Shown here: positions 11,661 through 54,607 of the stretch, piece by piece | Position numbering within the stretch: position 1 is the stretch's first letter | How the letters are laid out: each line of letters begins with the position of its first letter | Virus record (IMG/VR): IMGVR_UViG_2737471993_000002 | From: a virus | Taxonomy: Duplodnaviria > Heunggongvirae > Uroviricota > Caudoviricetes | DNA length: 64,000 bases | Direction: 5' to 3' (one strand) | Position numbers and translations under genes: made by a program | The notes under the pieces: generated by a model | Told to the model about the DNA's origin: nothing | Database searches by the model: none | The model's input: the letters and a program-made list of their open reading frames with translations, nothing else

Positions 11661-11678
11661 GAAAACAAGTTGTTTCAG
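11661..11678. promoter_or_regulatory. AAACAAgtTGTTT palindrome upstream of parA-like gene
   Basis: Palindrome GAAAACAAGTTGTTTCAG; same half-site (AAACAAnTTGTTTAAA) recurs upstream of genes at 15447, 43155 and 54608. Confidence 0.4.
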
Positions 11679-11710
11679 ACGATAATTATATACGCAAAGG
11701 GAACTCTCCA

Positions 11711-12379
11711 ATGACCAAGATCTTTGTGGTTGGCGGCACAAAGGGCGGGCCTGGCAAATCCACCGTTGCCCAGCAAATTGCCGTTTGCCTGAAAGTCAAA
11801 AAGAAGAAGAAGGTTTATATTACCGATATAGATATTCAGCGCACGACAACGAGCTGGTGTGAAGACCGTCGACAGAACGAAGACCTTGAGCTGATTCCTT
11901 TTGCATACGTTCAGGATGACATCATTAAGCACCTAAAATCGCTTCAGGGTAGAGCTGAGTTTGTAGTGGTAGATGCTGGTGGCTTCGACTCCGAAATTCA
12001 GCGACAAGCGATGCTGATGGCTGACGTTATCATTATCCCGCTGCGTCCTAAGCGTCGTGATTTGAAATCTTTACGTGACATCGATCCTATTATCGACAAT
12101 GTTCGCAATGTAAACGATAAAGTGAAGGTCCGCGCGGTCATGAACCAGTGCCCGGCTTTGCCATCACAAGTGTCTCGCATTCTGGCGGCTAAAGAGATTG
12201 TTGAGACGTTTGGCATCGAGTCTGCGCCAGTCAATCTATATAACCGCAACGTCTATGATGATGCGGAAGAGTCTGGTCGTTCTATCTTTGAAATGACCGG
12301 TAGCGAGCGCGACAAAAAGGCGGAAGCCGAGTTTGAAGAATTTGTAGATTATCTGTTGAGTCTGGAGGAAGAAGAATAA
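11711..12379 (+). CDS. parA: ParA-like partition ATPase (small ParA/ParF type)
   Basis: Deviant Walker A GGTKGGPGKST near N-terminus; 222 aa; followed by overlapping small basic gene (TAATG). Confidence 0.7.
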   Translation: MTKIFVVGGTKGGPGKSTVAQQIAVCLKVKKKKKVYITDIDIQRTTTSWCEDRRQNEDLELIPFAYVQDDIIKHLKSLQGRAEFVVVDAGGFDSEIQRQAMLMADVIIIPLRPKRRDLKSLRDIDPIIDNVRNVNDKVKVRAVMNQCPALPSQVSRILAAKEIVETFGIESAPVNLYNRNVYDDAEESGRSIFEMTGSERDKKAEAEFEEFVDYLLSLEEEE

Positions 12380-12738
12380 TGTCCATGAAAATGGGTGACC
12401 TAGCAAAGCGCAAAGAGCCTGATGCACCGGCTAAGAACACAACTCCTTTGCGCCAACCAGTCAGACCACAGGGACGCCCGACTCGTGGCAAAGAGAAAAT
12501 TAAAAGCCGCACAATGTCACTGGAAGACGAATACTTCGAACTGCTGGAGATGATGAAGTTCATCCCTCGCTTCGAGAAGTTCACTCGTTCTGACGTGATT
12601 CGAGCAGCCATTTTCCATCTGGCAGAGAAGTCACCGCAGGAAATCGAGGACATCGTGAAGCTTAACGAGGCGATCACAGCTGCCGACGTTACGATGCGTA
12701 CCGATGAAATTAAACGAGAGTTGATGAAGAAAGGTTGA
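12379..12738 (+). CDS. Small basic DNA-binding partner of ParA (ParG/ParB-like, ribbon-helix-helix candidate)
   Basis: 119 aa, Lys/Arg-rich disordered N-terminus, C-terminal SDVIRAAIFHLAE-type RHH-like segment; translationally coupled to the ParA-like gene. Confidence 0.4.
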   Translation: MSMKMGDLAKRKEPDAPAKNTTPLRQPVRPQGRPTRGKEKIKSRTMSLEDEYFELLEMMKFIPRFEKFTRSDVIRAAIFHLAEKSPQEIEDIVKLNEAITAADVTMRTDEIKRELMKKG

Positions 12739-12789
12739 TTATATTGGGCGTTTGTTACGCCCAATATATGAATTAAAGGATTGATACTA

Positions 12790-14484: not shown

Positions 14485-14494
14485 GTATTCATGA

Positions 14495-14545
14495 CCTGTT
14501 TCTGTATATAAATAATAAGTAACTTATTAAATATACGGAAGCAGG
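14495..14545. repeat. Copy A of duplicated long hairpin module (CCTGYTTCTGTATAT...ATATACGGAAGCAGG)
   Basis: 15-bp inverted arms around an AT-rich loop, directly after stop of the KAP NTPase gene; near-identical element at 62321-62385; downstream ~40 nt later a shared CCA(C/-)NAGAAC..CTCCCTTCC block. Confidence 0.6.
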
Positions 14546-14662
14546 TCTTTCAAAAGATACCCACCAGAACAACTCCCTTCCGTTTCCACTTCCAAAAACT
14601 GCCACCAATCGCTATCATCAGCTCATTGTGATAAGTAAGTAACTACCTACCAGGTGAGCCAC

Positions 14663-15403
14663 ATGAGCCAAATCTTTTTCGACACCATCGACAACGACCA
14701 GTACGACTTCATGACAGAGTGGAATACCGCTGTTATGGATAAGTGGGTTGCTGAAAACATTGGTTTGTCGCGCTGCAAAGACGAGGCTGAACTCTTCGAT
14801 ACGAAGTGGTTTGATTACCGCGACATGCATCCTCTTATGGCCACCTGTCTGTTTACGGAGGCATACAAACGTCAGTACTCAAATATCATGCTGACGCACG
14901 GTCGCGAACACTTTGAAACAGCTCCGTTCACCACCGGGTTAAAACGCCTGCCTTATCAGGAGTTGTCGACTGCCAATAAAACGTCGCTATGGAAAGCACG
15001 CCAGTTTGCTGACCGCTATTGCTGCTCATACGACTACTTTATCTCCACCGTTCTTTCCGCAGCTGCACGACGTCTGTGGGACAAGCTGCCTCGCCCACAG
15101 CATTTGTGGCAGCCAGAACTGATTGAGATATTTGAAGAGAAATTAGCCAGACGCGCAACAACCCGTCTGGATGACTCTCTGGTTAGCTTTAAGCATATAG
15201 GAGACATGCAGTTCAACCCGATCCAGGAAAGCTATTTTGAGTGGATTCTGGAGCGTTTACGCACCATCCCCCGCAGCAAGCGCATACGCGCAATTTTCTC
15301 CGCTATCTGGCTAATGGAAATCGTTCCAGAGCGCCTTATTTCCGCCCACTTTCCAGAAGAACTGGAAGAAGCACGGCGGTTTATTGATCCCCTATCTAAT
15401 TAA
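14663..15403 (+). CDS. Hypothetical protein
   Basis: ATG at 14663 with AGGTGA upstream (track start 14654 is GTG); 246 aa; immediately upstream of helicase gene. Confidence 0.5.
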   Translation: MSQIFFDTIDNDQYDFMTEWNTAVMDKWVAENIGLSRCKDEAELFDTKWFDYRDMHPLMATCLFTEAYKRQYSNIMLTHGREHFETAPFTTGLKRLPYQELSTANKTSLWKARQFADRYCCSYDYFISTVLSAAARRLWDKLPRPQHLWQPELIEIFEEKLARRATTRLDDSLVSFKHIGDMQFNPIQESYFEWILERLRTIPRSKRIRAIFSAIWLMEIVPERLISAHFPEELEEARRFIDPLSN

Positions 15404-15411
15404 CTAATACT

Positions 15412-15432
15412 AGAAAACAATTTGTTTAAAAA
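15412..15432. promoter_or_regulatory. AAACAATTTGTTTAAA palindrome upstream of helicase gene
   Basis: AGAAAACAATTTGTTTAAAAAAC; member of the recurring AAACAAnTTGTTT motif family. Confidence 0.4.
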
Positions 15433-15446: not shown

Positions 15447-16787
15447 ATGACCGAACTTTGCCATACAGGACGCGGGCTGTCCGAAGAGTTTGATGAAGAT
15501 TTCCAGAACAGACTGACGGCATATTTTTGTCGTGATCACGAGTTTCTTACTCGTGCGGGAGATCTGGTTGTGCCTAGCCAATTTGCCAATGCGGCCAATG
15601 CCATATTGGTTAATATGGTTTCGGGCTATTACCGTATGTACAAGAGCGCGCCCTCTTCATCTGCAATTCTGGATATGCTTAAGCGTGCGAAACGCGATAA
15701 GACTATCCGTGAGGAACTATTCGCCGATGTTGTTGCTGCGTTTAAGCGCATCCTTGCAGAAAAATTGTCCGATACCTCGTACATGGTTGACCAGGTATCA
15801 ACCTTCGCAAAAAGCGTAGCGTTTGATGATGCTCTGATTAAGGCTGCTGAACTGAAAGAGAAAGGCGACTTTCAGGGGGCGATGGCAATCATGGCCAAGG
15901 TTCAGCAGATTGGATCGAACGAAGCGACCGGAATCTATGACTACTACACCTCCGCAAGTGAGCGATTGAAAGCGCGTGAATATGAGGCTTCAGAGGAGTA
16001 TGTACCAAACAGTATTACAACAGGACTCCCTCTTCTCGATAGGTTGCTGTACCAAAAAGGCTGGGCAAAGCGCGAAATGGTGCTTTTCATGGGGTTCGCT
16101 AAATCCGGTAAATCGACCGCAATGGGTGAGTTTTCCATAAACGCAACGCTTGCTGGCTACAATGTTCTGTATCTCTCGCTGGAGGTTCACACCAACATTT
16201 TGTCCGACCGCTTTGATGCAAGATTGTCGGAGACGGAAATGTCCAAGCTGGTGGAACGGCGCGATGAAGTTCATCGTAAGTTGGCAGAGTTGGGAGCCAC
16301 TAAGGGGATTGGTAGTTTGTGGGTTGTTGAGCGTCCGTCAGGAAGTATGTCACCGGCAGATCTGGACCGTATGCTTAACAGCATGAAAGCCAATGGCATG
16401 GTGCCTGACATGCTTGTTGTCGACTACGCAGATTTGATGCGTGCCAGTTATGACCTTCGTGATGATCGCGCCAACATTCGTAGTATCTACACCGATTTAC
16501 GTGCTCTTTATGACAAACACAACGTTGCTGGTATCACAGCATCGCAAACAAACCGTGAAGGTGGCGCGTCAGAAGTTGCCACAATGATGCACGCTGCCGA
16601 CAACATCGAAAAAGTACGTATTGCTGACCTGGTAATAACGATCAACAAAACCGAAGAAGAAGAAGCGAAAGGAGAGGCTCGTCTCTACTTTGCTGGTTCG
16701 CGTAACCAGCAGGGAGGGATCAGCATTCGCGTTAAACAAAACCTCGAACAAATGCGCTTCATTGAGCGAATCTTAGACGTTACCTAA
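15447..16787 (+). CDS. Replicative DNA helicase (DnaB-like)
   Basis: Walker A GFAKSGKST, DnaB-type C-terminal RecA-fold motifs (LYLSLEV, VVDYADLM, ITASQTNRE); 446 aa. Confidence 0.8.
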   Translation: MTELCHTGRGLSEEFDEDFQNRLTAYFCRDHEFLTRAGDLVVPSQFANAANAILVNMVSGYYRMYKSAPSSSAILDMLKRAKRDKTIREELFADVVAAFKRILAEKLSDTSYMVDQVSTFAKSVAFDDALIKAAELKEKGDFQGAMAIMAKVQQIGSNEATGIYDYYTSASERLKAREYEASEEYVPNSITTGLPLLDRLLYQKGWAKREMVLFMGFAKSGKSTAMGEFSINATLAGYNVLYLSLEVHTNILSDRFDARLSETEMSKLVERRDEVHRKLAELGATKGIGSLWVVERPSGSMSPADLDRMLNSMKANGMVPDMLVVDYADLMRASYDLRDDRANIRSIYTDLRALYDKHNVAGITASQTNREGGASEVATMMHAADNIEKVRIADLVITINKTEEEEAKGEARLYFAGSRNQQGGISIRVKQNLEQMRFIERILDVT

Positions 16788-16868
16788 AAAATAAGCGTGG
16801 AGAACACCTCCACGCTTGATTCATTGGTGAAACAACTTTTCTTTTGCCAAACCACAAAAGAAAAACAC

Positions 16869-18050
16869 ATGAGCCTTTATGTTATATCAACATTTAGGTT
16901 GGTCACAATATTGCCTGTTAAAAGTGGAATTATCGTGAGCGAGCTGAAAGAGCTAATTGCCGAATTAGATTTTGAACAATGGTTGGATACTGAAGGTATC
17001 GTTTATCGACGTGGAGGCGTGAGTGCTCGCGGTCGTGAAGTGAATATCAAAGAGTGTCCGGTATGCGGCAGCTCCAACTGGAAGGTATATTTCAATCTGA
17101 CCAGTGGCGTCGGTAAATGCTTCGCTGGTGATCATCCCGAAGAGATTCAGTTCAATAAGCTGGTCTTCCTCAAGCACTACAGCGGCAAATCACGACGACA
17201 GTTCGAGGAATATGTGCAGAACGCCCTTCTTTCCCAGGGGTGGGCACCAAAGAAAGAAGAGCTAGTGCTTGCAAGCACAGTCGAGTTAGAGGGGCCAGTT
17301 GCACTCCCTCGTCATTACGAGCTTCCTATAGATGGCCGTCTTCCAGACTATCTGGTTGAACGAAACATATCACCTGAAATGGCAAAGTATTTTGACCTAC
17401 GATACTGCGTCGAAGGCAAGCACGCTTATGTAGATCCGTATACAGATCAGGTAAAAGGGCAGATATTCGATATGCGAATACTGATACCGGTTTACGATCT
17501 GGATGGGGTAATGAAGACATTTCAGGGACGAGACATTACCGGTACAGCAGAACGCCGCTACCTCTTTCCTATGCAGCTTCCAGCTTCAGGTAAGTTTCTC
17601 TACAACGGCCATAATGCAGTCGGCAAACAGACTGTAGTTGTCTGTGAGGGGGCGTTCGATGTTATGGGGGTTAAACGAGCTATTTTTGACGAAGAAACAT
17701 TACGTGATTACGTGGAACCAATAGGAACGTTCGGGATGCATCTATCTGGTAACACCACTCAGGATGCAGAAGATCAGTTAGGCGCGTTCCTGACGCTCAA
17801 GGCGCGTGGGTTACGTAATGTGATCATGATGTGGGATAGTGAAAAGCAAGCTATACGCAACACTATGGCCGCAGCCAGGCGACTGAGCAGTATTGGTCTT
17901 AATGTGAAAATTGCATGTTTGGGCGAGGAAGGACTCGACCCCGGCGATGCGACCCCGGGGCAGATTATCAAAGCCTACTATTGCGCAAAACCTTACTCAC
18001 GACAGCTTGAACTCTTAAGCAAGGTGAAAGGCATTGCAGCACTAGTTTGA
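16869..18050 (+). CDS. DNA primase (zinc-binding + TOPRIM)
   Basis: ATG at 16869 in the conserved AAAGAAAAACACATG initiation context (track start 16797 lies inside an intergenic hairpin). CPVCGSS..C zinc motif and TOPRIM-like VVCEGAFDVM. Confidence 0.65.
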   Translation: MSLYVISTFRLVTILPVKSGIIVSELKELIAELDFEQWLDTEGIVYRRGGVSARGREVNIKECPVCGSSNWKVYFNLTSGVGKCFAGDHPEEIQFNKLVFLKHYSGKSRRQFEEYVQNALLSQGWAPKKEELVLASTVELEGPVALPRHYELPIDGRLPDYLVERNISPEMAKYFDLRYCVEGKHAYVDPYTDQVKGQIFDMRILIPVYDLDGVMKTFQGRDITGTAERRYLFPMQLPASGKFLYNGHNAVGKQTVVVCEGAFDVMGVKRAIFDEETLRDYVEPIGTFGMHLSGNTTQDAEDQLGAFLTLKARGLRNVIMMWDSEKQAIRNTMAAARRLSSIGLNVKIACLGEEGLDPGDATPGQIIKAYYCAKPYSRQLELLSKVKGIAALV

Positions 18051-19833: not shown

Positions 19834-19896
19834 AGGTGAATGCTGGGCTGAGGATATGCCCGGCATCTTAGTATAAACAACTATTGCACCTAAAAT

Positions 19897-19918
19897 GATA
19901 AGTAGATACATACTTAAG
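19897..19918. promoter_or_regulatory. Palindromic operator-like motif (GATAAGTAGATACATACTTAAG)
   Basis: TAAGTA..TACTTA inverted half-sites ~40 nt upstream of start at 19959; member of a motif family seen upstream of at least 14 genes. Confidence 0.45.
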
Positions 19919-19958
19919 TTTTTGTAAGAATACTTTCATCCGTTAGCTAGGAGTTGGT

Positions 19959-20741: not shown

Positions 20742-20808
20742 GCTCTCTGTGTGTCGTTTTTTACGCAAATAATGATAGGTAAGCACAAGATTATTTCTGG
20801 CGGTAATT

Positions 20809-24187: not shown

Positions 24188-24262
24188 GATGGTGTAGCTC
24201 AGCGGTAGAGCAGTTGGCTGTTAACCAACTGGTCGGTGGTTCGAATCCACCCACCATCGCCA
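24188..24262 (+). tRNA. tRNA-Asn (anticodon GTT)
   Basis: Acceptor stem GATGGTG/CACCATC, anticodon loop CTGTTAA, T-arm GGTGG-TTCGAAT-CCACC, discriminator G and encoded CCA. Confidence 0.8.
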
Positions 24263-24267
24263 ATTTA

Positions 24268-24354
24268 GGGGAGTTAGTCCGTAGAGGTAGCGGTGTAGAC
24301 TGTAAATCTACTGTCATTGCGACTCGGGTGGTTCGACTCCATCACTCCCCACCA
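24268..24354 (+). tRNA. tRNA-Tyr (anticodon GTA), long variable arm
   Basis: Acceptor GGGGAGT/ACTCCCC, anticodon loop CTGTAAA, long variable arm, T-loop GGTTCGACTCC, encoded CCA. Confidence 0.75.
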
Positions 24355-24358
24355 AATT

Positions 24359-24434
24359 GCCGGTTTAGCTCAGTTGGTAGAGCGCCTGCCTTGTAAGCAG
24401 GATGTCAGCGGTTCGAGTCCGTTAACCGGCACCA
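24359..24434 (+). tRNA. tRNA-Thr (anticodon TGT)
   Basis: Acceptor GCCGGTT/AACCGGC, D-arm GCTCAGTTGGTAGAGC, anticodon loop CTTGTAA, T-loop GGTTCGAGTCC, encoded CCA. Confidence 0.8.
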
Positions 24435-24940: not shown

Positions 24941-26275
24941 TCATGCCAAATTATCCAGATTTCTTTTCTTTTTTTCAATTATATTTCTCGCGCCAGAAAA
25001 AATTTTACTCAAAATAATTGGTTTGCTTGCTCTATTATTAAGATGTAACAACGCGCTATAAAATACATAGTTATCTATTTTACTATTTAAGGTATTCCCA
25101 AGCTTCCCGTTATATGTGCTATTAATAGTATTAAAATATACATGTTCAGGACCTATATTACAAATACCCCTATCAACTCGCTTTAAATAATGTTTAACTA
25201 AAGAAATAGCATCTTCCTTATCATTAATAACATAAAGTCCTGAGCGTTTACCTAGCTTGCTGTCCGAGAATAATTTATAACCAATAAGTTCATTTAACGT
25301 ATTATCCACTTTTGTCAACTCTTTGTTGGCAATCTCCAGATAATACTCAATCTCTTTCTCCATATTACTTATTAAAGAGTTAAATTCTGCTCGTAACAAA
25401 TCACCACCAGGTGATTTATAACTCCATAAAATTGAATTGGTAATACGTACTACGTCAGATATTTCTGGTTTCTCTGAATAGTTTTTGTATCTAGTGCAAA
25501 TAATGCTGTGCTTTATATATTCTCTAACTAATGATCGATAATCCCTTTCGAAAAGGTTTTTGACATCTAGTCTTCCATTGCTTGTTGTTATTAGGGTGGT
25601 GTTTAAAACTGGGTCGCCTTCAAAAAAATTATATTTATTTAGTAATCGTTTTAGCTTGTGTGAATTATGTGATGTTTCGCCATAATAATTTATCCCAAAA
25701 ATAGCAATTATTAGCATAACATCAGGAGTGATGAAATGTCGTAATTGCTCGGCATAAACTTTTTTCTCTTCGATTTTCGAAGATGGAGAGTAAAAACCTT
25801 TGTCTATATATTCTAATATTGAAACAATATTACTAACATAACGTATAAAAACTTGATTCATTACAACGGAATCATAAACCTGATGCAAATAATCTACTCT
25901 CAAGTTGTTTTTTATTTTTTCCCCTGTACTAGATGATAACTCTTCTTTTACCTGCCCAAGTAGCTTTTCGTGGTGCTCCAGCAATGTTTTAAACCATTGT
26001 TCAAATGATGATTTTCTTGCCTCAGTTAATGAATCTGATGTTATCTGGACAGCTTTCATAGCTGCTTTCGCACTTTTCTTTGCTTCATAAGCGTTCCATG
26101 CTGTAGCACAAAAAGCTGCCGCCGTGATGCAACTGGTAAAAATAGAAATCCTATCTGCAACATTCAAGCTCCAGAACCAATCAGACGATGAAATCAAAAC
26201 CACAGATATTACGGGAACAATGAAAATCAAAACAGGCATGTATGTACTCGCTCTAATAGTTATTAGTCGAGGCAA
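24941..26275 (-). CDS. AT-rich membrane-anchored protein of unknown function (candidate accessory/defence gene)
   Basis: 444 aa (alternative start at Met13); two N-terminal TM helices then large soluble domain; AT content far above the flanks; next to tRNA cluster and recombinase. Confidence 0.5.
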   Translation of the reverse strand: MPRLITIRASTYMPVLIFIVPVISVVLISSSDWFWSLNVADRISIFTSCITAAAFCATAWNAYEAKKSAKAAMKAVQITSDSLTEARKSSFEQWFKTLLEHHEKLLGQVKEELSSSTGEKIKNNLRVDYLHQVYDSVVMNQVFIRYVSNIVSILEYIDKGFYSPSSKIEEKKVYAEQLRHFITPDVMLIIAIFGINYYGETSHNSHKLKRLLNKYNFFEGDPVLNTTLITTSNGRLDVKNLFERDYRSLVREYIKHSIICTRYKNYSEKPEISDVVRITNSILWSYKSPGGDLLRAEFNSLISNMEKEIEYYLEIANKELTKVDNTLNELIGYKLFSDSKLGKRSGLYVINDKEDAISLVKHYLKRVDRGICNIGPEHVYFNTINSTYNGKLGNTLNSKIDNYVFYSALLHLNNRASKPIILSKIFSGARNIIEKKKRNLDNLA

Positions 26276-26332
26276 ATATTATATAAATCTCGTTATGATT
26301 TACAGACATGTATACGTATTGCTAATTATCAC

Positions 26333-26370
26333 CAACAAATGATAGGTGTGTACATATCTATCATTTGTTG
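26333..26370. promoter_or_regulatory. Perfect 13-bp inverted repeat (operator-like) upstream of glutaredoxin gene
   Basis: CAACAAATGATAG-n12-CTATCATTTGTTG; half-site shares TGATAG/CTATCA with the motif at 38448. Confidence 0.5.
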
Positions 26371-26417
26371 TAAAATTAATGTATACGCTATGAATACACT
26401 AATAATATGAGGTAATC

Positions 26418-26663
26418 ATGACTATCGTTATCTACGGACGAGATAACTGCTCATACTGCAAACGTGCGGTCGAGCTGGCGAAGCAACTAAAGGGACATGG
26501 CTACGGTGATTATGAGTACATCGACATCACTACTGCCGGTATCGATAAGGAAAAACTTAGCGAAATTGTTGGTAAACCTGTAGAGACTATCCCCCAGGTA
26601 TTGATCGATGGCCAACCGATTGGCGGATACACAGAACTGGCTGCATACGTCAGCACCCTCTGA
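26418..26663 (+). CDS. Glutaredoxin (NrdC/NrdH-like redoxin)
   Basis: 81 aa with CSYC active-site motif near N-terminus and glutaredoxin-like fold signature (TIPQVLIDGQPIGGY). Confidence 0.8.
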   Translation: MTIVIYGRDNCSYCKRAVELAKQLKGHGYGDYEYIDITTAGIDKEKLSEIVGKPVETIPQVLIDGQPIGGYTELAAYVSTL

Positions 26664-26667
26664 TTTT

Positions 26668-26692
26668 AACGGCTCACAGGAGCCGTTTTTTA
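26668..26692 (+). terminator. Rho-independent terminator
   Basis: AACGGCTC-ACAG-GAGCCGTT hairpin followed by TTTTT directly after the glutaredoxin stop. Confidence 0.7.
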
Positions 26693-26874
26693 TTCCCACC
26701 AAACTCACTCCTGTTTCCCTTAAAATTCAAAAAACAACAGCTAAATGATTCCATACCTACTATGTATGGAATCATTGCTGAAAATGAGTTACTTTTACTC
26801 TTGATCCTATAAGAATCTATGCCTAATATACTGTTTACTTATACAGTGAATCGGCGTAACTCGGTGATTGTCAT

Positions 26875-27978
26875 ATGAAAAATAGCTTTGACAGAGCACG
26901 CGCTGCGGAGAACACCTCAAAAGAGGCGATTGAGTATCTCGAAAGAGCATCTCAAATGCAGGCCGTTATGATCTCGCAGGTTAGCAATGATATGAGATTC
27001 TCGGACGCATTCATGTTATTCACTCGCTTATCTCTGCTGATAACCAGACGTCGGCCAGAGATCGCTGTTCATTGTATTTTGATACATGTTTTGCCGCACA
27101 TTGCTGATGTAAAAGTAAGTGACATTAATAGGTTCATGGTGAACCAACTGGTCAACCCTCTAATATTGGATGGCAAAATTGTTATGGGCCGCCGCGTTTT
27201 CTCTCTGATGAAGCAGTTCCTTAGCTGGTGCGCCTTCCAGGGGATGATAGACGTGTCACCGCTAAACGATATGTCACTAAACAAAGTTGCCGGTGGCGCA
27301 AAGCCCACACCTCGCGAGCGGAAGCTGACCGACGCAGAGGTATGGGTGTTCTGGAATATATGGGACTACTTCAATGTGTGTGCTGGTACAAAATGGGCGG
27401 CCAGGCTATGTCTTGTATCCGCAAGACGACCTGACGAAGTACTGCGGGCTAAAAAAAGTGAGTTCAATCTTAAGCGTGGGGTTTGGAATCAAGGCAAGAG
27501 GAACAAATCTGCCCGTGAGCATTCTCTGCCTTTAAGCTCATTAATGCGCACTTGTATTGAAGAGTTGTTCGAATATGGTAAAGACAGCCAGTGGCTCGTG
27601 CCTTCGAATAAAAAAATCGGGAAAGACCTTCCTATGTCTAAAGTGGCAATAGCCCAGGCATTACGTCGTATTCTGGAACGACCAGAACTGATGGAGCTTG
27701 AGCCATTTACACCCCGAGATTTGCGCCGTACTGCGCGTAGTTACTTCCCAGCATTAGGCATAAGCCAGGAGGTATCACGTAAAATCATGAACCACAGTCT
27801 TGAGGGGATAGATCGGGTCTACGACCGGCACGATTATATGGACGAGATGCGAGACGCCTTAGAAAGTTTCTCGACGTACATCGCATCAATCGTAGAGCAA
27901 CCGGATTTAGACGAAATTGACCACAAATTTAAGGGAGATCGTCTATCAACAGAGCTTATTCGTGTAAATTTTTCATAG
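26875..27978 (+). CDS. Tyrosine recombinase / integrase
   Basis: Conserved boxes ARRPDEVLRA (R..E), RDLRRTARSYF (box II R), MNHSLEGIDRVYDRHDY (H...Y catalytic region); 367 aa. Confidence 0.7.
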   Translation: MKNSFDRARAAENTSKEAIEYLERASQMQAVMISQVSNDMRFSDAFMLFTRLSLLITRRRPEIAVHCILIHVLPHIADVKVSDINRFMVNQLVNPLILDGKIVMGRRVFSLMKQFLSWCAFQGMIDVSPLNDMSLNKVAGGAKPTPRERKLTDAEVWVFWNIWDYFNVCAGTKWAARLCLVSARRPDEVLRAKKSEFNLKRGVWNQGKRNKSAREHSLPLSSLMRTCIEELFEYGKDSQWLVPSNKKIGKDLPMSKVAIAQALRRILERPELMELEPFTPRDLRRTARSYFPALGISQEVSRKIMNHSLEGIDRVYDRHDYMDEMRDALESFSTYIASIVEQPDLDEIDHKFKGDRLSTELIRVNFS

Positions 27979-28359
27979 AGACTTTATGGCCTCAACAACC
28001 TTTTGTGATGCGCCTTTCTCTTTACCGAATCGCTCGTTATATGCAGCAAGAACCTGTTTTTCGTCCTCGTTAAGAGGAGCAGTGCCTTCTTTGTATAAAA
28101 ATGCTGCGAGTTCGGGTTGGCGTTCTTCCAGCACCATCATCATAAGACGACTTGGCTCAATGCCCAGTGCCAGCGCCAGCGGACGAACCTTATCGATAGG
28201 CAAAGGAATTTTGCCGCTTTTAATTAAAGAAAGGTTGTTGGCGTTTTTATACCCAATTGTTTTGGCTATCTGGGCCTGGCTCATAGGTGAGGATTCAATC
28301 AACCCTGCGATAAAAGCAGCGTAGCGACTTTCTATAAATTCAATCTTGTTATCAGACAT
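27973..28359 (-). CDS. HTH transcriptional regulator (Cro/CI-XRE type)
   Basis: MSQAQIAKTIGYKNANNLSLIKSGK helix-turn-helix; convergent with recombinase; divergent AT-rich promoter region at 28360-28610. Confidence 0.6.
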   Translation of the reverse strand: MSDNKIEFIESRYAAFIAGLIESSPMSQAQIAKTIGYKNANNLSLIKSGKIPLPIDKVRPLALALGIEPSRLMMMVLEERQPELAAFLYKEGTAPLNEDEKQVLAAYNERFGKEKGASQKVVEAIKSL

Positions 28360-28823: not shown

Positions 28824-28921
28824 CCCCTCTTCTCCCTGCGCGAATGGCTTAGTTCCCTGTTCGCGCAGTGCTACATTAAACACACTAGTAAATAATTTGT
28901 TTTCATAACAAAGGATTAGCC

Positions 28922-38443: not shown

Positions 38444-38447
38444 TTTT

Positions 38448-38478
38448 TGATAGATAATAAGTAAGTACTGATCTATCA
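38448..38478. promoter_or_regulatory. Palindromic operator-like motif (TGATAGATAATAAGTAAGTACTGATCTATCA)
   Basis: Outer arms TGATAGAT/ATCTATCA enclosing TAAGTA..TACT core; upstream of SSB gene. Confidence 0.45.
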
Positions 38479-38560
38479 TTTAACAGCTCGAAAGAGCCAC
38501 GAATGAACGAAAGCCCAACGCGCATAGCGCCATCGGCCAAATCACAACAAGGAGAAACAC

Positions 38561-41936: not shown

Positions 41937-41941
41937 ACACA

Positions 41942-41966
41942 AGGCGTCCACAGGACGCCTTTTTTA
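41942..41966 (+). terminator. Rho-independent terminator
   Basis: AGGCGTCC-ACAG-GACGCCT followed by TTTTTT. Confidence 0.7.
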
Positions 41967-42028
41967 TCTCTTGAAAATATATAAGCACTTACTTATTATT
42001 TTCGCATAACAACCACATAGGAAAACAC

Positions 42029-43079: not shown

Positions 43080-43105
43080 AGGCGTCCAGTTGGACGCCTT
43101 TTTTA
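43080..43105 (+). terminator. Rho-independent terminator
   Basis: AGGCGTCC-AGTT-GGACGCCT followed by TTTTT. Confidence 0.7.
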
Positions 43106-43154
43106 TCGCAATTATCTTATTAAGAAAACAATTTGTTTAAAAGGATAAGAAAAC

Positions 43155-43580
43155 ATGACAGCTATTAAGAAACTCTACGATGCCGCAAACGTGGCTCTGG
43201 ATGTTATTGATGATGAAGCAGCAAAAGGCTTTCCTGAACCTGATTGGGCGCATCAGCTACGAAACGCTATCGCCGAAATGAATCCACCAGATCCGACCAC
43301 CGACGAGACAGACTGGCAGCGATTTATCCGTATGTACGCTCAGGAAATAGGTCCAACGCCAACGGCAGAGCAAGCAATGCTGCTGAAATACTTCAAAGAG
43401 GCGGGAGAGGATTTACCAATTGATGACTCAGCATATTGGTTCCACTGCGCATGGCGTAAGTATGACGTGATATTCACACAAGGCATGGGGAGCAAAGATA
43501 TGGTTGTGTGGCATCTACTCCATATAGACACAGCCGTTGACAGAGTTATTGAACAGTTTTTCCCTAAACAAGAAGATTGA
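43155..43580 (+). CDS. Hypothetical protein
   Basis: 141 aa; preceded by the AAACAATTTGTTTAAA palindrome (43122-43141). Confidence 0.5.
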   Translation: MTAIKKLYDAANVALDVIDDEAAKGFPEPDWAHQLRNAIAEMNPPDPTTDETDWQRFIRMYAQEIGPTPTAEQAMLLKYFKEAGEDLPIDDSAYWFHCAWRKYDVIFTQGMGSKDMVVWHLLHIDTAVDRVIEQFFPKQED

Positions 43581-43635
43581 TCGCCTATTCATAACTAACA
43601 AAATAAGTAAACACTAACCACAAAAGGAAAAACAC

Positions 43636-43911: not shown

Positions 43912-43950
43912 GTTTACAGTAAAATTTATATAAGTTAGTGTCTACCTATC

Positions 43951-44674: not shown

Positions 44675-44721
44675 ATGCAAACTGACTGCGGCACGTTCCG
44701 CAGTCATATTTCATAGTCGTC

Positions 44722-45254
44722 ACCGCTGACAGCATACACAATCAACTACCGCTGATAGCATATCGAGAGTCTATCTCACCGCTCACAGCATACTTTACTC
44801 GATTTTTTACCGCTGACAGCATACTTAAGACATTGCATGAATAATGTGTACCGGTATGGGTATAACCAGAACAAAATTACCGCTGGCAGCATACGAAGGT
44901 CTGACATATACCATTAATTACCGCTGATAGCATATCCAAACAAAAATTCCTCAATAAAACACCGCTGACAGCATACGTTCTATCAGGGAGCAGCAGGCAA
45001 TAAATGCCTTTCACTACAAGCAATCAGCGCAATAGCAATAGAATGTTAGTGAGCGCAAACCTATATGGAATGCACTCTTCGAGGTTAGTAACCACTGGGG
45101 AGGTATGACAGAGCATTGAGTGGTGATAGATGATTTACCGCCCACAGCATACGTTCATCTCACTATACCGCTGGTAGCATATATTTAACCGTTTACAGCA
45201 TACTTTTCAGAAAAATAGCCGCTGATAGCATACATTTCACCGCTGACAGCATAT
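44722..45254. repeat. Iteron array (12 copies of ~16-bp ACCGCTGACAGCATAC) downstream of repA
   Basis: Copies at ~44722, 44748, 44778, 44809, 44879, 44920, 44961, then 45137, 45167, 45188, 45218, 45239; minor variants (GATAGCATAT, CACAGCATAC). Two clusters separated by ~160 bp. Confidence 0.85.
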
Positions 45255-46348
45255 CAAAGCAGTTTGAGACTATTGGAAAGGATCTCAATCATCTTGATAT
45301 TTTCAGGCGTCAAATTCTGCGAAAGTTCGGTTATCTTGTTGATAATGTTCTGTTTGGCATCAATTTCCCCAGCTTTCTCATCTAGTTTTTTGGGTTCGAT
45401 GTCTTCAGGTTTTGGCGGTGCGACTTTGAGTTTTGGATTGCGGCTGTGAATCTGGATATAGATCGACCGCCCTCGCTTAATCTCGCTGTATTCGAGATAA
45501 CCCAAATCTTGGAGAGCTTTTAAGCCGTTGCGTATAGTCTGATTCTGCGAGCTGACATTCCTGCTACTCAAATTGAGTCGCGCACGCAATCGAGCAAGCG
45601 ATACCGGCGCAGGCTTGGTTGGAAGACTTTCGATGAAGGTGTACAGAGCCTGTGCTGTTTCTTTGCGTGGTAGCTTATTGATAACCTTTAACTGCAAAAG
45701 AACCTTATGGTCAAAGCGATATAGTTCGGCCAGCTTCGGTTCTGCATAGAACACCACCGTATCTTTCTGCTCGTTGTAGTCCACGCTATTGATGAGGTGC
45801 ACCATCAGAAGCGAGATCTTGTTAGAGCCGTCGACGTTCTTTTCTTCATACGTTCTCTGGAAAGACAGAGTTGTACGCATGATCTTCAAAAGACTGTTTG
45901 TAAGCCGGTCGCGGAGTGTTTTGCGGATCTGTGACGATGGATAGCCACAAAACTTCGCAAATTTCGTGATGCTTAACTCGACACGACCGTTAGGTTCGCC
46001 GTATTCTGCCAGCGAACGCACAACGCCCACCCACGTTTTGAAATCATGATCCATGTCGAGACGAGGACCGGTTATCTTGATATCGGAATAGCCTTCAGAA
46101 CGGGCTACTTCGAGCTGAACAAGCTCCTTTGAAGCATCGATCTCATTTGGCTTGTTACGCTTGCTGTATTTTGTCCCCTTGAGCGTGGGCACGAACAATC
46201 CCAGCCGCATCAACGCAATTGGTTGGACTGTATTGTTGCTATTAGGGACAAGTTCCCCTGTGTACAATTCAAGGGAACCTTCTTCAAAGTTGTCGAGATT
46301 ATCTTCTACTTCTTTGTTATTTTTACCTTTTTTATTTTTTGTGGACAT
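45254..46348 (-). CDS. repA: Plasmid replication initiator RepA (RepFIB / P1 RepA-like)
   Basis: Start at internal ATG 46348 with AAGGTG SD (the longer track ORF would run through the upstream iterons). Motifs NTVQPIALMRLGLFVPTLK, ITGPRLDMDHDFKTWVG, QALYTFIESLP, PVSLARLRARLNL recalled as RepFIB-type signatures. Confidence 0.85.
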   Translation of the reverse strand: MSTKNKKGKNNKEVEDNLDNFEEGSLELYTGELVPNSNNTVQPIALMRLGLFVPTLKGTKYSKRNKPNEIDASKELVQLEVARSEGYSDIKITGPRLDMDHDFKTWVGVVRSLAEYGEPNGRVELSITKFAKFCGYPSSQIRKTLRDRLTNSLLKIMRTTLSFQRTYEEKNVDGSNKISLLMVHLINSVDYNEQKDTVVFYAEPKLAELYRFDHKVLLQLKVINKLPRKETAQALYTFIESLPTKPAPVSLARLRARLNLSSRNVSSQNQTIRNGLKALQDLGYLEYSEIKRGRSIYIQIHSRNPKLKVAPPKPEDIEPKKLDEKAGEIDAKQNIINKITELSQNLTPENIKMIEILSNSLKLL

Positions 46349-46368
46349 GTGGACACCTTTGTCATTCA

Positions 46369-46470
46369 ACCGCTGACAGCATACTTGATTTGCCGCTGAC
46401 AGAATACCAAAAACAGTTGGCAGCATACGGTGAACCGCTGACAGACTATCAATTACCGCTGACAGCATAC
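46369..46470. repeat. Iteron array upstream of repA (origin-side, ~5 copies)
   Basis: ACCGCTGACAGCATAC-type repeats at ~46369, 46392, 46417 (partial), 46434, 46455. Confidence 0.8.
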
Positions 46471-46669
46471 ATGAACATGGCTTCAGACCAGTCGTGGCGC
46501 GGCTTACAGCGATCGGGGATCTTATTTGATCTATACAAGGATCTATCTATGGATCTCTTTATTAGGATCTATCCTGTGGATATGTGAATAATTAAAACAG
46601 GCATTTACTACCTTCGGCGCACCTGGTGGGTTATCGTTGCCTCGGCTAACAATCACAGAAAAATGACAT

Positions 46670-47314
46670 ATGGATCTAAAACGTACGCGCTGGGTTCGTC
46701 GTCTTGAAGACGGCTCCTACACTATCGAATCAAATTCCAACCTGAATAAGCAGAAGTTGCTTTGTGACATCTGCGGTATAGCGGCGAAGTGCCCGATCTA
46801 CGAAACCAGAATTAAACTTGATAAGGCTGGTGTGAATTTTCATTTAAACAGTTGCATCAGGTACGTTCCATTACTCGCATTTCGTAAACCGATCATCGGA
46901 TTGGATGCTCCCTACTTCAACACACTCCGTTCAGGTGTGACGTGGCGAGATCGTTTATCACCAGACAAGCTGATTTGCCTCGTATCCGCAGACACAGGGA
47001 AAATCATCCGTTTTGGGAAAGTAGACAAGGTTTACTCAGGCCCAGTAGACGAAATGTTGCGGAAACACAGCCGGTTTAATCATCTCTGTATGGGTGGTGA
47101 GAAAATCGAGAAAGTAGAAGAAGTGATCCGCAAATCCTACGGACACTTTCTGACCAAAGATAGCCTGCTCACCGCAATCTACATCAGACATGTAAAACGT
47201 GAGTTCGACCTCGAATACCACAGCGAAGAAGAGCTTAACCTTGTTGACCCACGTCCAAAAGCTGGCGTCATAAGCATAAACGCAGCGCGTAAAAAGCCCA
47301 CTGACGCGCTGTAA
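46670..47314 (+). CDS. Hypothetical protein
   Basis: 214-aa ORF. Confidence 0.5.
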   Translation: MDLKRTRWVRRLEDGSYTIESNSNLNKQKLLCDICGIAAKCPIYETRIKLDKAGVNFHLNSCIRYVPLLAFRKPIIGLDAPYFNTLRSGVTWRDRLSPDKLICLVSADTGKIIRFGKVDKVYSGPVDEMLRKHSRFNHLCMGGEKIEKVEEVIRKSYGHFLTKDSLLTAIYIRHVKREFDLEYHSEEELNLVDPRPKAGVISINAARKKPTDAL

Positions 47315-47432
47315 CCCTCCAGATCGTATATTGGCGTAGATAGAATCTACGCCCCCTCAAAATAGCTCTCATAGCGTTCTACAGTGATCCTGTCTTATTT
47401 TTAGTCATACAGACAAGCAAAGTTGCGCCACG

Positions 47433-47456
47433 ATAAATAGGTATATACTTACTTAT
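47433..47456. promoter_or_regulatory. Palindromic operator-like motif (ATAAATAGGTATATACTTACTTAT)
   Basis: Motif-family member upstream of the Mre11-like gene. Confidence 0.4.
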
Positions 47457-47568
47457 AAATTTTGTATATTAAGGCGCTCGTTTCATTCCTAACATACCGT
47501 TATGCATAGTTGTTTACCTCCTCATTGCTCTTAGAATTTGTATCAAAATAACCACAAAGGAAAAATAC

Positions 47569-52112: not shown

Positions 52113-52118
52113 TTTCAT

Positions 52119-52139
52119 TGATAGGTAAGTGCTTATCTA
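52119..52139. promoter_or_regulatory. Palindromic operator-like motif (TGATAGGTAAGTGCTTATCTA)
   Basis: Motif-family member ~45 nt upstream of nrdA; followed by hairpin/terminator. Confidence 0.45.
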
Positions 52140-52146
52140 TTAACAT

Positions 52147-52177
52147 GGGCCACTATATTTAGTGGCCCTCTTTATTT
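52147..52177 (+). terminator. Rho-independent terminator / attenuator upstream of nrdA
   Basis: GGGCCACT-ATATTT-AGTGGCCC followed by T-rich tract. Confidence 0.6.
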
Positions 52178-52185
52178 GGTGATAC

Positions 52186-54501
52186 ATGATAAGCATCGTA
52201 AAACGTAACGGCCAAACAGAGCCGTTATCCGAAGAAAAATACAACCGCGTCGTAATGTATGGCGTAGAAGGCATTCGTGGTGTAAGCGCATCCGCTGTAG
52301 CAATGGGAGCTGCGGCCAGCATTTTTGATGGGATTACCACCAGCCAGTTGCATGAGGCTTTGGTTAAATCTGCCGCTGATTTGATCTCACCAGAAGCACC
52401 AAATTACTCACAGGTGGCTGCCCGCCTGAACATTTTTAAAATCCGCAAAGATGCCTTCGGTCGTTACGACTATCCGAACTTCTACCAACACATTGTCAAG
52501 AACGTTAACAAGGGCGTTTATGACAAGGATTTGCTGACACATTATTCGTTTGAAGAGATCGAAGAACTCGGCAATTACATTAAGCCGAAACGTGACGATC
52601 TTTTTGGCTATGCAGCTACGGTGCAGTTGCAAAGCAAATACCTCGTTCAAAACCGTGTTACTGGTGAGATTCATGAGGGGCCGCAACATATCTATATGCT
52701 GGTAGGCATGTGTCTGTTCCAGAATTGGGAAGACGACTGCGCTGGCAAAACACGTATGGAGATGGTCAAAGGTTTCTATGACGTTACAAGTACGTTCAAA
52801 CTGTCTCTGCCCACACCAATCATGGCCGGCGTCCGTACTCCAACCCGTCAGTTCTCCAGTTGTGTGCTGATTGAGTCTGGCGATAGTCTGAAAGGGATTA
52901 GTGCAGCTTCAGCCGCAATTATCGACTACGTTTCACGTCGTGCTGGAATTGGTATTGGTTTTGGCCGTATCCGTGCGCTGGGCAGCGAGATCCGCAATGG
53001 TGAAGCCACCCATACCGGAGTTATTCCATTCCTGAAGCATTTCCAGACGGCTGTTAAATCTTGTTCGCAAGGTGGTGTTCGTGGTGGCGCAGCAACAGCG
53101 TTTTACCCGATCTGGCATCTTGAAGTTGAAAGTCTGCTGGTGGTGAAAAATAACCGTGGTATTGATGAAAACCGCGTTCGCCATCTTGATTACGGCGTCA
53201 TGAGTAACCGTCTAATGTACCGTCGACTCGTCAGAAGCGAGAACATCACTCTGTTCAGCCCGCATGATGTGCCTGATATGTACGAAGCCTTCTTCACAGA
53301 CCAGGAGCTGTTTGAAAAGCTGTACCATAAATACGAAGCCGATGATTCAATTCGCAAGAAGCCAGTACCTGCCATTGAGCTGTTCTCATCTCTGATGCAG
53401 GAACGAGCGTCCACGGGCCGAATTTATATTGCGAACGTAGATCATATTAACGAGCATGGCGCTTTCATTCCTGCTCTTGCACCTGTTCGCCAGTCAAACC
53501 TGTGCATGGAGATCACTCTACCCACTCGTCCACTGGCATTTACCGACGACCCGAACGGTGAGATCGCGCTATGCACTTTATCCGCTTTTAACCTCGGAGC
53601 CATCCGTTCACTGGAGTCTCTTAAAGAGGTGGCGTTCTATGCCGTTGCTGCACTGGATTCGTTACTGGATTATCAAGACTATCCGATGGAGGCAGCCGAA
53701 GTGCCTGCCAAAGCTCGTCGTAGCTTGGGAATTGGTGTAACCAACTTTGCTTATTACCTGGCAAAGAATGGCGTTCGTTATTCTGATACCGCTGGCAATA
53801 AACTGGTGCATGAAACGTTCGAAGCTATCCAGTATTACCTTCTTGATGCCAGCTGCCGACTTGCTGAAGCAAAAGGTGAGTGTGACTGGTTTGAGCAGAC
53901 CAAGTACGCAATTGGTCAGTTGCCGATCGACCATTACCGTTCTTCATTAGACGAAAGTGGCGAAACCAACTTTGAGTTAAAGATGCCGTGGGAAGAACTG
54001 CGTGAACGTATTGCAAAATACGGCCTTCGCAACTCCACACTGACGGCACAAATGCCATGCGAGACTTCCAGCCAGATCACTAATTCCACCAACGGCATCG
54101 AACCGCCTCGTGGCCCGGTGTCGGTGAAATCTTCTAAGGACGGCATCGTTAAGATGGTCGTGCCTGAGTTTGAAAAACTGAAGGAACAGTATGAATACCT
54201 GTGGGATATGCCGGACAACCGCGGCTATCTGACAAAGGTGGCGATCATCCAGAAGTTCTTTGACCAGGCTATTTCAGCCAATACCAACTATGACCCTTCT
54301 CGCTTTGAAGGCGATAAAGTCCCAATGATGACGCTACTGTCAGATTTGCTTCTCGCCTACAAGATGGGAGTTAAAACGCTTTACTACCACAACACCAGAG
54401 ATGGGGCAGGAAAGCGTGATGACGACGAACCGCAGAATCCACTGACGCAAGCTGTAGCCGTCGAGCCAGAAGATGAGTGCGACGGAGCCTGCAAAATCTG
54501 A
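52186..54501 (+). CDS. nrdA: Ribonucleotide reductase class Ia large subunit
   Basis: 771 aa, N-terminal ATP-cone, active-site region SNLCMEITLP, C-terminal Cys pair (CDGACKI). Confidence 0.9.
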   Translation: MISIVKRNGQTEPLSEEKYNRVVMYGVEGIRGVSASAVAMGAAASIFDGITTSQLHEALVKSAADLISPEAPNYSQVAARLNIFKIRKDAFGRYDYPNFYQHIVKNVNKGVYDKDLLTHYSFEEIEELGNYIKPKRDDLFGYAATVQLQSKYLVQNRVTGEIHEGPQHIYMLVGMCLFQNWEDDCAGKTRMEMVKGFYDVTSTFKLSLPTPIMAGVRTPTRQFSSCVLIESGDSLKGISAASAAIIDYVSRRAGIGIGFGRIRALGSEIRNGEATHTGVIPFLKHFQTAVKSCSQGGVRGGAATAFYPIWHLEVESLLVVKNNRGIDENRVRHLDYGVMSNRLMYRRLVRSENITLFSPHDVPDMYEAFFTDQELFEKLYHKYEADDSIRKKPVPAIELFSSLMQERASTGRIYIANVDHINEHGAFIPALAPVRQSNLCMEITLPTRPLAFTDDPNGEIALCTLSAFNLGAIRSLESLKEVAFYAVAALDSLLDYQDYPMEAAEVPAKARRSLGIGVTNFAYYLAKNGVRYSDTAGNKLVHETFEAIQYYLLDASCRLAEAKGECDWFEQTKYAIGQLPIDHYRSSLDESGETNFELKMPWEELRERIAKYGLRNSTLTAQMPCETSSQITNSTNGIEPPRGPVSVKSSKDGIVKMVVPEFEKLKEQYEYLWDMPDNRGYLTKVAIIQKFFDQAISANTNYDPSRFEGDKVPMMTLLSDLLLAYKMGVKTLYYHNTRDGAGKRDDDEPQNPLTQAVAVEPEDECDGACKI

Positions 54502-54607
54502 CATATGGTGGGGGATATCCCCACCTTCTCTTTGATTTGTAAGCCTTGTTTAAACACATAAGATAACAACTTGTTTAAACGCACCAAAAAAGAAAAAGGA
54601 AAAACAC

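Follow-up and report, generated by a model that had tools for sequence, protein, structure and literature searches.

On the IncP-1 plasmids RK2/RP4, KorB and KorA exert control over global regulons through their operators OB (TTTAGCSGCTAAA) and OA (GTTTAGCTAAAC). Omega of pSM19035 and ParG of TP228 are ribbon-helix-helix (RHH) partners of small ParA ATPases, and C1 of phage P1 is an immunity repressor that recognizes an asymmetric 17-mer operator (ATTGCTCTAATAAATTT). Our analysis of IMG/VR record IMGVR_UViG_2737471993_000002, a 64-kb stretch of DNA (hereafter the window) that is part of an SSU5-like phage-plasmid, shows that a 13-base palindrome, the 6-N-6 dyad AAACAA-N-TTGTTT, is a genuine non-random cis-element placed before a defined set of genes. 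Judging from its sequence pattern, this palindrome is probably the double-stranded DNA operator of a two-fold symmetric protein encoded by the element itself, which would govern a dispersed regulon of about 20 units in SSU5-like phage-plasmids. Over most of its length the window is ~98% identical to the Escherichia phages CMS-2020a, Cyrano (pLF82) and PhiR41_1, and about 76–82% identical to Salmonella phage SSU5. Palindromic operators dispersed over a temperate phage or plasmid, the category to which this one would belong, are well known; in the literature that we searched, we found no description of regulatory sites or circuitry in SSU5-like elements.

The exact palindrome AAACAANTTGTTT occurs three times in the window (11663–11675, 15415–15427 and 43126–43138) versus 0.01 expected, and five times at up to one mismatch versus 0.35 expected, and neither count was reached in any of 100 shuffles. 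At two mismatches the signal is lost (9 versus 6.5 expected), so the palindrome family is a sharp one. Both the shuffles and base composition rule out chance or AT-richness as the source of the palindromes. The AT-rich background presumed in a first-pass annotation of this DNA, made from the sequence alone, was mistaken, the GC content of the window being 0.37–0.53 and mostly about 0.45. All five sites are intergenic, 16–35 nucleotides (nt) upstream of the ATG of plus-strand genes. Site 1 (AAACAAGTTGTTT, exact, 11663–11675, inner flank AAGA) lies 35 nt upstream of parA (11711–12379), the first gene after it, which codes for a small ParA/MipZ-type ATPase. Site 2 (AAACAATTTGTTT, exact, 15415–15427) lies 19 nt upstream of the gene for a DnaB-like replicative helicase (DnaB_C, 15447–16787) and 11 nt past the stop codon of the preceding gene. 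Site 3 (AAATAATTTGTTT, one mismatch, 28890–28902) is found 19 nt upstream of a gene coding for a CobT-like protein of 702 amino acids (aa) with a VWA domain (28922–31030). Site 4, an exact copy with the same sequence as site 2 (43126–43138), precedes by 16 nt the gene of a 141-aa DUF7238 protein (43155–43580) and follows a terminator-like hairpin by 27 nt, and site 5 (TAACAACTTGTTT, one mismatch, 54564–54576) lies 31 nt upstream of nrdB (54608–55750), which codes for the ribonucleotide reductase small subunit. The first-pass annotation had placed the palindrome before the ParA-like, helicase and nrdB genes, all three correctly named, and before the gene at 43155. These four placements stand, with a trivial offset of 2–4 nt upstream of the 13-mer starts, and the site before the CobT-like gene, absent from that annotation, adds a fifth. 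The two half-sites that it described at nrdB were correct in that a sequence is repeated there, but what is repeated is the direct repeat CTTGTTTAAAC, at 54545 (a copy of the right half, 54545–54555) and at 54570, the second copy being contained in the one-mismatch palindrome.

The window holds five of about 18 sites, the main cluster being located outside it. At up to one mismatch, we counted 21 sites in the whole genome of SSU5, 18 in PhiR41_1, 18 in Cyrano and 17 in Klebsiella phage pJN2-26, as well as 22 in plasmid p2 of K. pneumoniae KpPF25 (KpPF25-p2), a distant syntenic lineage, and six in pMT1 of Y. pestis, a degenerate element. The regulon, with 17–22 sites per genome, is conserved in four diverged lineages, and the five window sites have orthologues in other lineages. 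Examined as a candidate operator, the palindrome displays complementary 6-N-6 arms around an unspecified centre, and it is both over-represented and conserved at orthologous positions in SSU5, pJN2-26, KpPF25-p2 and pMT1. In alignments of the regions upstream of the helicase and cobT-like genes, the 12 arm positions form a conserved island between flanks that vary, and the central base of the helicase site is T, A, C and G across the four lineages. At site 1 the whole parA promoter region is identical at the orthologous position of SSU5 and pJN2-26, with one mismatch in KpPF25-p2. The orthologues of site 3 in SSU5, pJN2-26 and pMT1 are exact palindromes amid diverged flanks. At the position of site 5, the same T-variant is present in SSU5, and in pJN2-26 the site is doubled, at a distance of 25 bp. 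When the left half is GAAAACAA, mismatches in the right half follow a bimodal distribution, with either 0–1 or 4–6, and the positions of one-mismatch variants mirror each other across the dyad (6/8, 4/10 and 1/13). Fixed arms, a varying centre, an all-or-none right half and mirror variants together imply selection on a dyad-symmetric DNA site. A pattern scan of IMG/VR retrieved ~100-kb SSU5-like elements as the contigs with multiple hits; the single hits are, by a rough estimate, chance matches of a 15-base pattern in 2.9 million contigs.

The invariance of the motif in hosts ranging from Yersinia to Klebsiella, and in lineages that differ in their own regulators, is also what would be expected if the palindrome were bound by a host factor, such as IHF, that is conserved throughout the Enterobacterales. 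The T-centred palindrome agrees at 10 of 13 positions with the lambda attP H' core (TATCAATTTGTTG) and, in both orientations, at seven of the nine specified positions of the consensus (WATCAANNNNTTR). Nevertheless, the IHF-specified positions T3 and R13 are never matched, and IHF sites are asymmetric and degenerate whereas the 12 arm positions are strictly and symmetrically conserved here, including at positions that IHF does not specify. The motif is likewise missing from the E. coli and Salmonella regions examined (fliC). We therefore regard a host-factor site as very improbable.

A stretch of 0.5–1.5 kb without annotated genes, kept at the same position in all lineages (SSU5 ~90381–90891, pJN2-26 ~25491–27077, KpPF25-p2 ~45425–46971), contains one or two of the palindromes together with many AAAACAA-type repeats; it may serve as a lytic origin or give rise to a non-coding RNA.

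Promoters in the window were deduced from weak hexamers (6–8 of 12 positions), upstream terminators and RNA step-ups in a related lysogen. Terminator-like hairpins precede the parA region (11540–11557), site 4 (43080–43099, plus strand) and nrdB (54507–54525), which implies that parA, the DUF7238 gene and nrdB need promoters of their own. All candidate hexamers are on the plus strand. The best sigma-70-like pair upstream of parA (11619–11647; 8/12) consists of TTTACA at 11619 and TAGGCT at 11642 separated by 17 nt, and site 1 begins 15 nt after this -10 hexamer. Upstream of the helicase gene (15384–15411), TTGATC at 15384 and AATACT at 15406 are 16 nt apart, and no more than 3 nt separate AATACT from site 2, which thus covers the expected start site; the -35 TTGAT is kept in SSU5 and pJN2-26, which have TAGTAT and TACGAT as -10 hexamers. 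The pair before the CobT-like gene is weak (28849–28877; TTAGTT at 28849, 17 nt, TACATT at 28872; only 6/12), and site 3 begins 12 nt after its -10 hexamer. Weak hexamers also precede the DUF7238 gene (43090–43118; TTGGAC at 43090, 17 nt, TATCTT at 43113), the -35 being inside the terminator hairpin and SSU5 having TTGGAC, a 16-nt spacer and TATTAT at this position. Those of nrdB (54536–54564; TTTGTA at 54536, 17 nt, TAAGAT at 54559) are weak as well, with a -10 that abuts the palindrome. From these hexamers, the palindrome is predicted to span roughly +9 to +21 at parA, -3 to +10 at the helicase gene, +6 to +18 at the cobT-like gene, about +1 to +13 at the DUF7238 gene and -7 to +6 at nrdB.

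All five predicted spans are positions from which a bound protein would repress, not activator positions. The palindrome is not the promoter itself, and its placement, either on top of weak sigma-70-like hexamers or downstream of them, speaks for repression. A role as the -35 element of a promoter further downstream was rejected at the window sites, where the ATG is only 16–35 nt away. An activator that recruits RNA polymerase to promoters with a poor -35, thereby defining a middle or early promoter class, would be in keeping with the poor -35 hexamers (about 3/6), with the silence of the promoters in lysogens and with the sites near -38, which are close to the class II activator position. But an activator does not work from downstream of the -10 or from on top of the start point, and such are the positions of all five window sites and of the majority in general. 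The set also mixes partition, replication and terminase-leader genes, and we hold an activator site to be quite unlikely.

Beyond the window, the 74 sites of four genomes show preferred distances to the promoter. A -10-like hexamer ends exactly 13 nt upstream of the palindrome in 16 of them and 14 nt upstream in six more, and starts exactly 19 nt downstream in 16, when about 1.1 are expected per register. Some sites outside the window lie over the -35 region, centred near -38; paired sites have their centres 51 bp apart in all four lineages; and the palindrome flank that faces the promoter is always GA/TC. In the small-gene region, also outside the window, a weak -35 (TTGGAC/TTTGTA) is followed by 16 nt, a good -10 (GATAAT/TATTAT), 13 nt (..CCAACAAGA), the palindrome, a Shine–Dalgarno (SD) sequence and the ATG, and a second palindrome, frequently after a conserved hairpin, often overlaps the -35. 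This arrangement suggests another explanation, namely that the palindromes are boundary repeats of mobile promoter cassettes (hairpin, palindrome, promoter, second palindrome, SD) that have spread and been homogenised by recombination, with no dedicated binder. Nearly every open reading frame (ORF) of that region follows the same ~64-bp module with similar spacers, and the module ends are inverted (TTGTTTTCT ... AGAAAACAA), often after the conserved hairpin AAGGCCACnnnnGTGGCCTT. The five window sites, by contrast, stand outside this cassette and have flanks unrelated to it and to each other, the 13-mer being all that they have in common, and at orthologous sites the arms are maintained though the lineages differ by 20–50% elsewhere, which implies selection on the 13-mer itself. 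Cassette spread accounts for the small-gene module but not for isolated 13-mers at the non-paralogous window promoters, and as a general explanation it seems to us improbable.

The transcriptome used to evaluate expression was the RNA-seq of LF82, the Cyrano lysogen, and thus represents the lysogenic state (PMC9928086, S1 Table). Genes behind palindromes mostly have 5–13 normalised counts, for a median of 9.8, the exceptions being parA (50), its partner gene CYRAN_29 (89) and the helicase gene (21) (PMC9928086). The palindrome promoters are essentially off in the plasmid state. The RNAs of the helicase, nrdB and parA genes are nevertheless 1.3–2.8 log2 above those of the gene upstream (about 1.8 for the helicase gene and about 1.3 for nrdB relative to nrdA), step-ups that fit weak promoters at three of the five window sites. 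The first-pass annotation had proposed a coordinately expressed, probably early or middle, gene class. In the full genomes, the regulon includes both the lysogen-expressed plasmid partition operon and the leader of the terminase/late operon, so that an early or middle label is not assignable.

Taken as a DNA operator, the palindrome would work by letting the bound protein occlude RNA polymerase from one of two positions, either in the interval that separates the -10 hexamer from the SD sequence, roughly -3 to +20, as at all five window sites, or over the -35 region with its centre near -38, as at sites outside the window. Paired sites, at a distance of 51 bp or about five helical turns, might allow cooperative binding or looping. 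Regulon promoters would in this way be kept low in the plasmid (lysogenic) state, and the parA operon, with one site in its own leader, would settle at an autoregulated intermediate level.

The position of most sites between the -10 hexamer and the SD sequence, which would place them in the leader, also suits recognition at the RNA level. The palindrome would then be an operator in mRNA 5' leaders read by a FljA-like tandem Hfq/Sm protein, possibly with a small RNA from the terminase leader, which carries the same self-complementary sequence, as partner. Bound beside the SD sequence, the protein would block translation and destabilise the mRNA, which is how FljA of Salmonella acts on the fliC leader. 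All SSU5-like elements do encode a full-length PF03614 (FljA) protein (E 1e-80), from a gene located outside the window (CYRAN_114 of Cyrano, 34780–35301). It occurs in 14 phage records, almost all of them SSU5-like phage-plasmids, and in 831 PLSDB plasmid records; its AF2 model (predicted local distance difference test, pLDDT, 83) comprises two Sm domains with Hfq as best PDB matches; and its gene is expressed in Cyrano lysogens, at log2 7–8 in most conditions. In addition, the Salmonella/Citrobacter fliC leader has CAAGTTGT 22 nt before a similar AAGGAAAAGATCATG, and in the terminase leader a GC hairpin and a T-run come after one or two palindromes, an arrangement that resembles a small RNA. 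Against this, a perfect dyad is needless for an RNA-binding protein and yet the arms co-vary as a unit, and for 16 of the 74 sites a -10 hexamer follows at 19 nt, so that these sites are not in the leader which that promoter would produce. Folding of the leaders gave no stable or shared hairpin (minimum free energy -0.6 to -6 kcal/mol, z-scores +0.8 to -2.1, with pairings that differed from one leader to the next), and Rfam had no match at any palindrome site; an RNA hairpin or a known RNA family was thus rejected as the identity of the element. Regulator and operator do not co-vary either, since KpPF25-p2 keeps the palindrome as it is although its FljA-like protein is only 36% identical. Autoregulation through the palindrome was discarded, as the leader and promoter of the FljA-like gene are devoid of sites in four genomes. 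As an independent FljA target for comparison, the fliC leader was set aside, since the motif is missing in E. coli and the Salmonella match covers only 8 nt.

Recognition of duplex DNA is favoured instead by the dyad symmetry and by those sites that precede the -10, and we consider an RNA-level operator, the main rival, doubtful. It is unlikely that the palindrome is the address of a post-transcriptional regulon in which the FljA-like protein acts as an Hfq-type chaperone or translational repressor on ~20 leaders, maybe with help from the terminase-leader RNA. If this were true, the plasmid-versus-lytic switch would operate at the level of translation and the terminated terminase-leader RNA could pair with every target. 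As to the FljA family itself (PF03614, annotated as 'repressor of phase-1 flagellin'), its predicted fold is a tandem Hfq/Sm one, for which we found no description in the literature searched, and a diverged branch of it is a hallmark of SSU5-like phage-plasmids.

Returning to a DNA operator, an invariant site predicts an invariant reading head in the protein that binds it. We rank as candidate binders, first, the 119-aa ParA partner (12379–12738, plus strand), second, an 88-aa MarR-like winged-helix protein (CYRAN_123) and, third, something else. In agreement with a type Ib partition system, a kind in which the partner regulates its own operon, the small partner gene directly follows the small parA and site 1 lies in the par promoter region; a centromere-like repeat array was not found, there being only one palindrome upstream of parA and the sites being dispersed singly or in pairs. 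The partner combines a basic tract with two invariant segments, MGDLAKR at the N-terminus and KSRTMSxEDE...FTRSDVIRAAI, the latter a putative DNA-reading block that does not change in homologues down to 48% overall identity. Were it the binder, it would act like omega or like the ParG/KorB partition proteins that double as global repressors. The winged-helix protein, encoded outside the window by the gene that directly precedes the terminase leader with its palindromes, is 75–100% identical in all lineages, with invariant recognition helix and wing arginines; its AF2 model has a pLDDT of 83, and the top PDB folds are those of MarR/MepR/ZitR (TMq 0.7–0.76). Plasmid pMT1 (NC_017169.1) lacks the SSU5-type parA, its partner, the helicase gene and nrdB, having a P1-type parAB instead, yet six palindromes and the genes for the winged-helix and FljA-like proteins are still present. 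It was considered as a natural deletion test and set aside as uninformative, the element being too young.

Several observations weigh against an operator bound by one of these proteins. A strict sigma-70 scan (at least 9/12) detected no plus-strand promoter directly upstream of any window site, so that strong canonical promoters were rejected there and only weak hexamers are left. The 13- and 19-nt registers are due in large part to cassettes of paralogous promoters with similar spacer sequence, whose phasing may reflect common descent rather than constraint; in the window, where the promoters are non-paralogous, anything from -1 to 15 nt separates the -10 from the palindrome. Across all sites, the RNA steps in the lysogen are mixed (9 up, 6 down), for which reason the step-up was abandoned as a general promoter test. 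On the protein side, the invariant block of the ParA partner can be read as RHH-like and hhalign places it in register with Arc/CopG/NikR/ParG/omega, but with an E of 0.16 and a probability <1%; the protein has no Pfam or PDB match and the NCBIfam aCcr1 match is below cutoff, so that this assignment is not significant. The winged-helix gene, about 1.8 log2 above the gene upstream, reaches only 7.8 in the Cyrano lysogen, which is near background. Finally, neither the family of the ParA partner nor that of the winged-helix protein has distant relatives or members beyond SSU5-like elements, which leaves no protein–operator covariation on which to draw.

A stereotyped translation-initiation region, which the first-pass annotation had joined to the palindrome as a mark of the same gene class, does exist. 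At up to two mismatches, AAAGGAAAAACACATG occurs seven times in the window versus 0.07 expected, and all seven matches end on the ATG of a long ORF (16869, 31126, 32542, 38561, 43636, 47569 and 54608). The copy before the primase gene is AAAAGAAAAACACATG (16856–16871, plus strand), with further copies ending at the ATGs at 15447, 31126, 32542, 38561, 43636, 47569 and 54608; about 10 of 61 gene starts share the context loosely. As a mark of the palindrome class it fails, since it is found before the palindrome genes helicase and nrdB and also before genes of the TAAGTA class described below (cobS-like 31126, SSB 38561, 42029, 43636 and sbcD 47569). AAAGGAAAAACACATG is a separate, ordinary feature, a strong SD sequence with an A-rich, structure-poor spacer, of the first genes of units in both classes. 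An extended initiation motif linking the left half-site to the SD sequence (AACAAAGGA) was also considered and is not enriched (25 versus 20.5).

A second and more numerous kind of inverted repeat (ATAAGTA..TACTTAT, GATAGGTAAGTGCTTATCTAT and similar) is present in about 19 intergenic regions of the window, among them 4436–4527, 8557–8746, 14485–14653, 19834–19958, 20742–20808, 26276–26417, 28391–28404, 31031–31125, 38444–38560, 41937–42028, 43581–43635, 43912–43950, 47315–47568, 52113–52185, 56698–56841 and 62656–63211. These repeats also precede tail-fibre and holin genes, and their right arm often overlaps a -10-like hexamer. They never share an intergenic region with the AAACAA palindrome, which makes them two separate classes of cis-elements, as the first-pass annotation had maintained. 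A perfect member of the TAAGTA class, GGTAAGTGCTTACC (28391–28404), lies 32 nt upstream of the gene of a helix-turn-helix (HTH) repressor located beside the integrase gene (27973–28359, minus strand), for which reason we tentatively assign this class, and not the palindrome, to the HTH repressor, of which it is probably the operator. The HTH repressor is absent from SSU5, which retains the palindromes.

The gene order of the window is that of Cyrano, namely tail genes, lysis, parA, helicase/primase, ligase, tRNAs, integrase and HTH repressor, followed by cobT/cobS-like genes, DNA polymerase III alpha, recombination genes, repA with iterons, sbcCD, nrdAB and thyX. On one side of repA (45254–46468, minus strand) there are about 14 iterons (ACCGCTGACAGCATA; 44716–45257) and on the other a GATC-rich segment with a DnaA-box-like TGTGGATA (46469–46669); together they are the plasmid replication origin of the prophage. 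The region 36339–36757 (minus strand) gives a full-length match to the Rfam cspA thermoregulator (185.7 bits) and corresponds to a CspA-type cold-shock gene carried as cargo with its 5' untranslated region, in the place of which Cyrano has hicAB between its DNA polymerase and uvsY genes. Three consecutive tRNA genes (24188–24431) correspond to a place annotated as Asn/Thr/Ser in Cyrano. A 444-aa ORF without Pfam match (24941–26275, minus strand), in the part of the window with the lowest GC (about 39%) and where relatives hold other cargo, is possibly a defence or accessory gene. The 556-bp intergenic region upstream of an RNase H-like gene (62656–63211) contains short direct repeats (CACTTCGTTCG), GC-rich hairpins and, at 63205, the palindrome-like AAGTAATTTGTTT with two mismatches. 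A long hairpin element (AGCCTGCTTCTGTATAT, 25 nt, ATATACGGAAGCAGGCT) has at least three copies per genome, at 62319–62377 in the window, in degenerate form at ~14494–14547 and, in Cyrano/SSU5/pJN2-26, between the winged-helix gene and terS. The repeat ATAAGTAACTTAT occupies the hairpin centre at ~14494–14547 and upstream of terS, the centre of the copy at 62319–62377 being different; the element might terminate transcription in both directions or act as a compound operator.

Among the SSU5-like phage-plasmids are pHCM2 of S. Typhi, pMT1 of Y. pestis and pLF82/Cyrano, as well as many resistance-carrying elements of Klebsiella and E. coli, and the group is common in clinical Enterobacterales, with 831 PLSDB plasmid records. 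A 13-bp site conserved so strictly at ~20 promoters offers a concrete handle on their circuitry, as it connects partition, replication, nucleotide-metabolism, small early-region and terminase genes, and together with three named candidate regulators it makes the decision between plasmid and lytic life directly testable. If the ParA partner were the binder, it would provide a phage example of a partition protein used as a global silencer.

By analogy, the closest functional counterparts would be the KorB/KorA regulons, the partition repressors of the omega/ParG type and the multi-operator regulon of P1 C1. With KorB/KorA the palindrome shares a 13-bp 6-N-6 design, at least a dozen copies per replicon, a distribution over replication, partition and other promoters including that of the par operon, and some sites just over or upstream of the -35; KorB is, moreover, a partition-system protein doubling as global repressor, as proposed here for the ParA partner. 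It differs from an OB-type site at every arm position apart from A/T content, most of its sites are downstream of the -10, its binder would be not a ParB but either a small ParA partner or a MarR-like protein, and the ParB-family genes of the element are silent in lysogens (CYRAN_119/120 at 5–9.5). As in omega/ParG systems, the gene of a small protein with a basic N-terminal tract, which is unstructured in omega and ParG, directly follows a small (type Ib) parA, and the operator lies in the par promoter; like omega, the putative regulator would serve several other operons, and the half-site spacing of 7 bp is that of the omega heptads. Those systems, however, have arrays of 7–10 short repeats at few loci instead of single 13-bp palindromes at ~20 loci, and the RHH fold of the window partner is only putative. 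Like P1, this is a phage-plasmid in which one regulator would act on many scattered operons, including that of a DnaB-type helicase, each with a conserved operator, but the immunity-type HTH repressor (27973–28359) appears tied to the TAAGTA class and, unlike immunity operators, the palindrome is invariant between lineages. The action of Salmonella FljA on the fliC leader offers a further parallel, in that a FljA-family protein is encoded, the target lies between promoter and SD sequence, and the core CAAGTTGT and a similar AAGGAAAA...CATG initiation region are common to both; here, by contrast, the target is dyad-symmetric, sites exist outside leaders and the phage-plasmid proteins are only ~36–40% identical to chromosomal FljA. 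Lastly, the small-gene region recalls the PeSL cassettes of T4-type phages, with a hairpin and early-promoter module before nearly every small ORF of a plastic region, but differs from them in the strict palindrome at one or both cassette ends, which is also found alone at promoters outside any cassette.

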